Of a stretch of DNA of 37,294 nt, positions 23,920 through 24,766 are shown piece by piece. Position 1 is the stretch's first letter. Each line of letters begins with the position of its first letter. This stretch comes from a virus. Its lineage: Duplodnaviria > Heunggongvirae > Uroviricota > Caudoviricetes. The DNA is taken from the IMG/VR virus record IMGVR_UViG_2711768034_000003, one strand, 5' to 3'. Below the pieces are notes generated by a model that saw only the letters and a program-made list of their open reading frames with translations, made no database searches and was not told the origin of the DNA. The translations under genes were made by a program, and so were the position numbers.

Positions 23920-24024
23920 TTCAGACTGTTGTTGAGCTGGAAATCGCAACGGAGGAAGAGAAAGCGTTACTGGCCGCATGGAAAAAGTATCGGGTGTTGC
24001 TGAACCGTGTTGATACATCAACTA
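23920..24024 (+). pseudogene. tfa: 3' remnant of a tail fibre assembly (tfa) gene
   Basis: Plus-frame translation ...[32 protein letters not shown] matches the conserved C-terminus of lambda/E. coli Tfa proteins (…EIAT.EE...[25 protein letters not shown]), then diverges; no start codon or N-terminal part. Confidence 0.7.
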
Positions 24025-24766
24025 TAGCTCCTTTTTTTCTTAATTCATCTGGTATTTTTTTTCCAAGATAAAGATTTGCTATTTCAGGTGGGGCTTCTCG
24101 ACCTTCAAAACCATAGCGCGAACTTTGTGTTGCCTCAAAGTCAGGATCCTCGTCCCAGTATTTCAACGAAGGGAAATTTTCACGTGTTGATTTGAGCCAT
24201 TTATCAGCAATGAAAACCCCTCGAACGATCCCCCTTACAGTAGCAAGAATGATTTCTGCTTGGCTGGCGCGAGAGACATTAATGCGCCAGCTAAATCGAA
24301 CCGCATCATAAAGCTCTGAATCCTTTGCACTTCTGTTAACGGATATCATTAATGCTTTATGATGAAATGTTATGGTTTCGGGCTGATATGTTGCTATCAA
24401 CTCTTTGACATGCGCGGCGCCGAATTCATTGCTGCCAGCACCATTCATGATATTCGTTAACCCAGGGTAGGCATCAATAAGTGCTGCTTCAACTTCGTAC
24501 GCCGTCTTTTCATCAGTCATTCCGTGTCGATGGATGACATGGATAACTTCAAGTCCTGCTAACCTTATTTCTCTAATTTGCTTTAGCTTGTTGCTCAGTA
24601 ACTCGTCATCATCAGTCGCTGCCACTTCACCGCGCATATGGGCAAATACGCGGTTACCTTTGCCTTTCCCTACATAGAAGGTGCTTCCGTCCCTCGGATC
24701 AATCAATCGGTATACATACCAGCCAAGGTGTTCAATTACTCCAGAAGGAAACTCAGTAATATCCAT
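23921..24766 (-). CDS. GIY-YIG-like domain protein (putative nuclease), moron; C-terminus possibly altered by the tfa junction
   Basis: Reverse-strand ORF from ATG at 24764-24766 ([44 protein letters not shown]...). YVY...YVG...R..H spacing fits the GIY-YIG motif. The last 34 codons are antisense to the tfa remnant. Confidence 0.55.

Follow-up and report, generated by a model that had tools for sequence, protein, structure and literature searches.

The reverse-strand nuclease ORF located near the tail-fibre end of the prophage is a copy of the known single-gene anti-phage system PD-T4-3, renamed CMoRE, and not a new system. Because a deletion removed its terminal 10 residues, including the invariant Tyr253 and the near-invariant Pro250, the copy is a damaged member of PD-T4-3/CMoRE by descent and not an intact one. 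The window, i.e., the whole stretch of DNA analysed (37,294 nt; IMG/VR record IMGVR_UViG_2711768034_000003), begins with the late half of a lambdoid prophage, which occupies the first 24 kb and extends from the terminase to the tail fibre. The features around the nuclease gene are listed in Table 1.

Table 1. Features around the fused nuclease gene, in window coordinates
Feature	Position	Strand	Basis or remark
Side tail fibre of the prophage (phage_tail_N at the N-terminus, Peptidase_S74 intramolecular chaperone at the C-terminus)	20124–23882	+	Convergent with the nuclease gene
Fused PD-T4-3/CMoRE ORF, 281 aa	23921–24766	-	Native aa 1–247 plus a 34-aa read-through tail; TGA at 23921–23923
Non-native 34-aa tail and stop, antisense through the tfa stub	23921–24025	-	Predicted to be disordered (pLDDT <50 for aa 245–281)
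3' stub of tfa (tail fibre assembly), 31 codons, no start, without the last 13 codons and stop	23931–24023	+	PGAP annotation of the reference locus (L001); translation
Deletion junction	24023–24024	.	142 bp of intact loci absent (alignment to L001)
Remaining part of the C-terminal modification-sensing domain, aa 128–247, without the terminal strand	24026–24385	-	PADLOC profile; AF2 secondary structure; function after PMC12923530
GIY-YIG nuclease domain, ~aa 15–110	24437–24724	-	PF22945 on aa 28–110; invariant columns; residue roles after PMC12923530
Upstream/promoter region of the nuclease gene	24767–24942	-	Conserved relative to the intact locus, a 3-bp indel and 6 substitutions being the exceptions
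Last 66 nt (3' end) of a tRNA-Ser(CGA)-like gene, spanning the anticodon loop to the CCA end	24943–25008	+	Probable attachment-site core, prophage end

Identity of the nuclease gene

An earlier note, made from the letters of the sequence, had proposed an ORF starting with the ATG at 24764–24766 and containing a GIY-YIG-like N-terminal segment. This ORF (23921–24766, reverse strand) was confirmed: it terminates with a TGA at 23921–23923 and encodes 281 aa. An in-frame TTG situated upstream at 24817 might extend the product by 17 aa; the ATG is regarded as the true start because the crystallised protein and the homologues begin with MDITEF. The N-terminal segment obtained a profile match with the Pfam family PF22945 (LEM-3-like GIY-YIG), which covered aa 28–110 with an E-value of 2.5e-14 and 53.9 bits against a cutoff of 27 bits. 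The generic GIY-YIG family PF01541 stayed under the Pfam threshold on the window protein (E 0.091), and the NCBIfam profile search of the same protein gave no match. The GIYxY-YIG motif can be read directly in the window protein (GW-Y17-V-Y19-RL…TF-Y31-VGKG…R39), and the residues Y17, Y19, Y31, R39, and E93, invariant in an alignment of 30 sequences, are all present. Also retained are Y127 and the acidic loop AAT-D51-D52-D53-E54-LL, which corresponds to the autoinhibitory loop of the family. The oligomer-interface residues V92 and L96 are present and conserved.

The PADLOC profile of PD-T4-3 (PDLC04031) matched the window protein with an E-value of 3.8e-135, aa 1–251 aligning with profile positions 1–250 of 256, which bears out the anti-phage nuclease offered by the earlier note as one of its alternatives. 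In comparison, the intact allele reached 7.6e-140 and covered positions 1–255 of 256. PHROG 5356, annotated as function unknown, matched at 5.7e-142. The intact allele (WP_000355482.1) matched the PDB entries 9U75 and 9U8D (CMoRE of E. coli O157:H7) at 5e-171 and the entries 9U7U and 9U7Z (APEC O1) at 1.6e-150, all four being titled 'GIY-YIG domain-containing protein'. It differs from the crystallised O157:H7 CMoRE at a handful of positions only. Due to this sequence match with the PDB, the fold of the nuclease is already identified.

PD-T4-3 was reportedly first found in E. coli ECOR68, the discovery of the family dating to 2022, while the structure and mechanism of CMoRE are said to have been published in 2025–2026 and the taxonomic spread of the family to have been published already. 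The four structures are from Liu et al. (Nat Commun 2026; PMC12923530), in whose work PD-T4-3, a type IV restriction enzyme, received the new name CMoRE (Cytosine Modification Restriction Endonuclease). According to these authors, CMoRE protects E. coli ~10^5-fold against T2, T4, and T6 by direct defence and not by abortive infection; it works as a tetramer, for the interface of which V92/L96 and the β1–β2 loop matter, and its acidic loop, situated between α2 and α3, autoinhibits cutting of ordinary DNA (PMC12923530). The C-terminal domain has a novel fold and binds 5hmC, with Y127 as the sole 5hmC contact named in the text, and the authors report no detectable homologues of this sensor domain outside its own family (PMC12923530). 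Extra domains at a terminus are tolerated by CMoRE types II–IV, and UvrC is the nearest structural neighbour of the GIY-YIG domain (PMC12923530). The same modification dependence is shown by a Capnocytophaga homologue (PMC12366544), and a knockout study demonstrated the activity of PD-T4-3 in its native clinical E. coli host (bioRxiv 10.1101/2024.12.20.629700). Overall, near-identical intact proteins restrict T-even phages and cleave 5hmC/5ghmC DNA but not unmodified DNA (PMC12923530; PMC12366544; bioRxiv 10.1101/2024.12.20.629700).

With PD-T4-3/CMoRE of the type I architecture the window copy shares aa 1–247, the same as in the intact allele, whereby the GIYxY-YIG motif, R39/E93, the DDDE loop, the interface, and Y127 are kept; the single-gene organisation and the location at a prophage end are likewise the same. 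It differs in having 34 unrelated residues in place of MSPVRYSPNF, the segment with the P-V-R-Y strand, and in the absence of the native stop and terminator. A modification sensor coupled to a nuclease destroying hmC/ghmC DNA is also known from GmrSD, McrBC, HEC-06, and MdgA/B (PMC12923530, PMC12366544). However, there is no sequence or fold kinship with these systems, the CMoRE nuclease being of the GIY-YIG and not of the HNH or PD-(D/E)xK kind. LEM-3/ANKLE1, the namesake of PF22945, and the N-terminal domain of UvrC have the GIY-YIG catalytic fold in common with the window protein, but the latter lacks the ankyrin and LEM domains and the C-terminal half of UvrC, and CMoRE is further distinguished by an extra tyrosine, an acidic lid loop, and another biological role.

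The 142-bp deletion

A megablast comparison of the region 23600–25200 with 5,426 complete E. coli genomes revealed 83 genomes with most of this region, and every match listed was split into two or three pieces. The locus of E. coli EC21Z-078 (L001), with its PGAP annotation, was used as the intact reference. Its gene order is a tail fibre with the S74 chaperone, a 135-bp tfa fragment labelled 'missing N-terminus', and a convergent 774-bp nuclease gene annotated as 'LEM-3-like GIY-YIG domain-containing protein' (WP_000355482.1, 257 aa). Pairwise alignment of the window with this locus gave a single clean gap of 142 bp with identical flanks, the missing segment corresponding to positions 3412–3553 of the reference. 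The ends of the deletion are …CATCAACT/GCACC… and …GGGGAC/ATAGC… (the slash marks the breakpoint), and a search for microhomology or repeats at these ends found none. Lost with the deleted segment were the final 42 bp of the tfa stub (…APDIEWPEEPDTV-stop), the hairpin terminator between the two genes, and the last 10 codons of the nuclease gene with its stop (…KKGA-MSPVRYSPNF-stop). Up to Ala247, after which the fusion sequence starts, the window protein has 0 differences from WP_000355482.1, and the coding DNA at 24024–24766 is identical to that of the reference locus and of several complete genomes. Since the native stop was deleted, Ala247 is followed by 34 non-native codons that run antisense across the 31 codons left of the stub.

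The alignment with the reference locus thereby confirmed the view of the earlier note that the last 34 codons are the reverse complement of a tfa 3' stub (23931–24023, plus strand). The junction, expected near 24025, was found between 24023 and 24024, i.e., 1–2 bp away. The note had further supposed that the native C-terminus was replaced at a recombination junction; the replacement holds, but the event was a simple 142-bp deletion and not a recombination with foreign DNA. Its proposal of a truncated or fused nuclease gene proved correct, the loss being limited to the last 10 residues and not extending to a whole domain. Moreover, the comparison with intact homologues that it had recommended demonstrated that the full-length homologues do not share the C-terminus of the window protein. 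As there is one clean gap and the homology within the family stops at residue ~247–250, the antisense overlap is not a product of chance.

The folding energies of the missing hairpin are -27.4 kcal/mol on one strand and -27.3 kcal/mol on the other (z -5.2 and -4.3, respectively). It was folded directly because consensus promoter and terminator scans had missed it in the intact locus and gave nothing useful on the strand of the gene. With this strong fold and, on the nuclease strand, a run of U residues after it, the hairpin acts as a convergent terminator, and with its loss the tail-fibre gene at 20124–23882 is now transcriptionally unprotected. The hairpin and the native 3' end of the nuclease gene are conserved in three prophage contexts, namely next to the tfa stub in EC21Z-078, the full-length tfa in AVS0171, and pinE in O157. 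Such conservation of the intact end indicates that the tfa stub arose before the deletion and that the state found in the window is derived.

Conservation of the lost C-terminus

In an alignment of 29 homologues with identity down to 54%, among them sequences from Acinetobacter, Oligoflexia, and Pirellulales, no exchange of Tyr253 was seen, and conservation was 90% or higher at Pro250 and Ala247. The motif G[AS]-x(1-3)-[PS]-[VIL]-[KR]-Y was present in the last 45 residues of 106 out of 111 near-full-length cluster representatives, nearly all of which terminate 1–8 residues past the Tyr. The five exceptions include one sequence ending within the motif, three with non-aligning C-termini, and one with Ser in place of the Tyr. 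None of the 6,448 relatives found in a collection of 5.8 billion protein clusters aligned past ~residue 250, with the query coverage reaching a maximum of 89%.

In the AF2 model of the intact protein, built from these homologue alignments, residues 251–253 form a β-strand (mean pLDDT ~88 for residues 251–257), and the lost tail would supply the final β-strand of the sensor domain. In the model of the fused protein, residues 245–281 have a pLDDT below 50, and the remainder of the C-terminal domain is unchanged at 86–96. These values express model confidence and are no measure of stability. The C-terminal modification-sensing domain of the window copy is, accordingly, incomplete. The structural work on CMoRE describes no truncation, no mutant or contact in the last 10 residues, and makes no mention of Y253, R252, or P250 (PMC12923530). 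Because the deletion takes the conserved terminal strand with Pro250 and Tyr253, the fused product most likely misfolds or fails to recognise its target.

Frequency of the gene and of the fused allele

The nuclease gene occurs in 838 of the 5,426 complete E. coli genomes, and the intact 257-aa sequence, located on at least 1,000 contigs, falls into a cluster that was formed at 90% identity and contains 1,045 sequences. The exact fused 281-aa protein was found on one contig only, the window itself (GCA_001268745.1, CXWS01000049.1), among ~15 billion proteins. Searches for the deletion junction in IMG/VR, the JGI metagenomes, and the 5,426 complete E. coli genomes gave no match; the intact right-hand junction, taken as the positive control, was recovered from 94 IMG/VR contigs. 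This restriction of the fused protein to one contig, together with the absence of the junction elsewhere, points to a very recent private mutation.

The tfa stub, the prophage end, and the neighbouring region

The match to the stub is annotated as tfa in more than 4,000 E. coli genomes. An intact Tfa is a full-length chaperone of ~190 aa with a start codon; the stub consists of 31 codons from the C-terminal region, with neither start nor stop. In AVS0171 (L004, 1245–4900), the same nuclease cassette comes after a tail fibre with the full 585-bp tfa. The S74 fibre of the window has a 3' relic of tfa only, as opposed to the full-length tfa in AVS0171, which suggests that a past swap of the tail-fibre module left the stub behind. 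The tail fibres of the window and of the reference locus are 82–88% identical. A candidate sRNA family of Rfam, IS009, gave a sub-threshold match at 23822–24022 on the plus strand (81.5 bits against the gathering score of 117, E 2.4e-18), covering the 3' end of the tail fibre and the tfa stub, with the 3' end of the model 1 bp from the junction. A relation between this boundary and the deletion was rejected: in the intact locus (L001, 3210–3410), the match stops at the equivalent position, and the closeness of the model boundary to the junction therefore seems coincidental.

Being the last gene before the tRNA-Ser fragment at 24943–25008, the nuclease gene is a typical prophage-end moron, in agreement with its earlier placement between the tail-fibre cassette and the end of the prophage. 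No complete tRNA was detected in the window by ARAGORN, and the tRNA-like sequence is for this reason a 3' fragment only. The fragment, which we take to be identical to serU, is present in 5,422 of the 5,426 E. coli genomes and is probably the att core of the prophage. A consensus scan of the region 24767–24942 found no promoter.

Other prophages carry the cassette together with the hairpin. In the O157-type strain E. coli 472 (L003), they are located in a decayed prophage, adjoining pinE and an invertible tail-fibre segment; in AVS0171, they are part of a lambdoid prophage integrated at ssrA and adjoin a type II restriction-modification pair. The PD-T4-3 cassette seems to be a small module that moves around at the ends of prophages.

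Past the prophage end, an AraC-family regulator (25582–26334, plus strand) and an rve_3 integrase-core fragment (26376–26741, minus strand) are followed by a second defence-like cluster at 27397–30257, ~2.6 kb away from the end. The AraC-family/rve_3 pair also flanks the intact nuclease locus in other E. coli genomes; the 27397–30257 insert is absent from the reference locus. The cluster contains a GmrSD_N/DUF262 protein (27397–28461, plus strand; Pfam 3e-24, PADLOC NsnA 1e-58, and PD-T4-2_A 9e-31), an overlapping gene for a HEPN_MAE_28990 protein (28458–29189, plus strand; Pfam 2.6e-10), and, convergent with the GmrSD_N/DUF262 gene, a C5 cytosine DNA methyltransferase (29193–30257, minus strand; Pfam 1e-56). 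Further ORFs are located at 32337–32702, 32784–33578, and 33757–35160, the last encoding a membrane protein that has several transmembrane passes and a tail rich in Gly/Ser. An acidic ORF of 439 aa (35672–36991, minus strand) had no match in Pfam or PADLOC. The region 32337–36991 possibly belongs to an integrative or conjugative element.

Discussion

It is very probable that the window contains a PD-T4-3/CMoRE copy which suffered a private 142-bp deletion, gained an antisense tail, and probably lost its function. In the intact enzyme, the C-terminal domain binds 5-hydroxymethyl- or glucosyl-hydroxymethyl-cytosine in the DNA of incoming T-even phages, and the N-terminal GIY-YIG domain, with its extra tyrosine and acidic lid, cuts this DNA as a tetramer; the mechanism at this point is taken from the literature. 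Lambdoid prophages carry the nuclease gene as a moron at their tail-fibre end, where it is convergent with tfa and the hairpin terminator lies between the two genes. The recent and apparently unique deletion took the last 10 codons and stop of this gene, the terminator, and the end of the older tfa remnant, with translation then running 34 codons antisense through what is left of the remnant. Direct observation covers the identity of the gene, the exact content of the deletion, the degree to which the lost motif is conserved, and how rare the allele is. From them we infer the loss of function, the fused allele being most likely inactivated or weakened, i.e., a fresh pseudogene or a strong hypomorph.

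The fused 281-aa allele might instead still be a working enzyme, in which the C-terminal 10 residues are dispensable or mimicked and the 34-aa tail is harmless. Indeed, aa 1–247 are untouched, including the catalytic residues, the autoinhibitory loop, the interface (V92, L96, and the β1–β2 loop), and Y127; the PADLOC score is still 3.8e-135; and the rest of the C-terminal domain is predicted by AF2 at a pLDDT of 86–96. Terminal extra domains are tolerated in types II–IV (PMC12923530), and the new tail loosely resembles the native …GAMSPVRYS…, with residual folding being possible. On the other hand, the lost segment, predicted to be a β-strand of the sensor domain, has the invariant Tyr and the near-invariant Pro, conserved across phyla. 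Except for contig-end or frameshifted sequences, no natural near-full-length homologue ends before the motif (one more has Ser for the Tyr), and the allele has stayed a singleton without spreading. A functional fused enzyme is thus considered unlikely. Equally, the deletion might have been other than a simple knockout, resulting in relaxed or altered recognition or in a dominant-negative subunit, with the loss of the terminator coupling the expression of defence to prophage induction. If this were true, nuclease transcription would proceed antisense into the tail-fibre gene and late phage transcription antisense into the nuclease gene, and this would produce the coupling. Such a scenario seems highly improbable.

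The gap itself might be an artefact of assembly or sequencing, the strain really holding an intact 257-aa gene. The window makes up an entire contig (CXWS01000049.1) in the draft assembly GCA_001268745.1, its junction was found nowhere else, and the missing segment has a strong hairpin able to depress coverage. However, the gap is internal to a long contig, its flanks are unique, non-repeated, without microhomology, and otherwise error-free on both sides, and short-read assemblers usually break contigs instead of joining them over 142 missing bases; an artefact is accordingly regarded as improbable. A free-standing GIY-YIG homing endonuclease of the I-TevI/Seg type, mobilising itself among prophages, would be in line with PHROG 314 ('homing endonuclease'), matched weakly at E 0.0022, and with the varied neighbours of the cassette (tfa stub, full-length tfa, or pinE). 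This identity has next to no probability and is effectively refuted by the published biochemistry. PF01541 was below its cutoff (E 0.091), and the Pfam and NCBIfam searches gave no homing-endonuclease DNA-binding module. The C-terminal domain is a crystallographically defined 5hmC binder, and the enzyme degrades modified phage DNA instead of cleaving an empty cognate site (PMC12923530, PMC12366544). The 'homing-endonuclease-like' alternative of the earlier note was hence wrong, the domain being the modified-cytosine sensor of a type IV restriction enzyme (PMC12923530).

For the PD-T4-3/CMoRE family, a private deletion in one prophage has little biological weight: the system is already known and its mechanism solved, and the local novelty amounts to one probably dead allele. 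It does hold a lesson for annotation, since PADLOC (E 3.8e-135) and PGAP-style naming would count the window copy as an intact PD-T4-3. The copy passes profile-based defence finders despite being without a conserved structural element and the terminator. As there is no published mutant in this segment, the allele could provide a natural experiment on the essentiality of the C-terminal P-V-[KR]-Y strand. Overall, with the remaining gene 100% identical to working copies, it represents a small example of the quick decay of prophage-borne defence genes.
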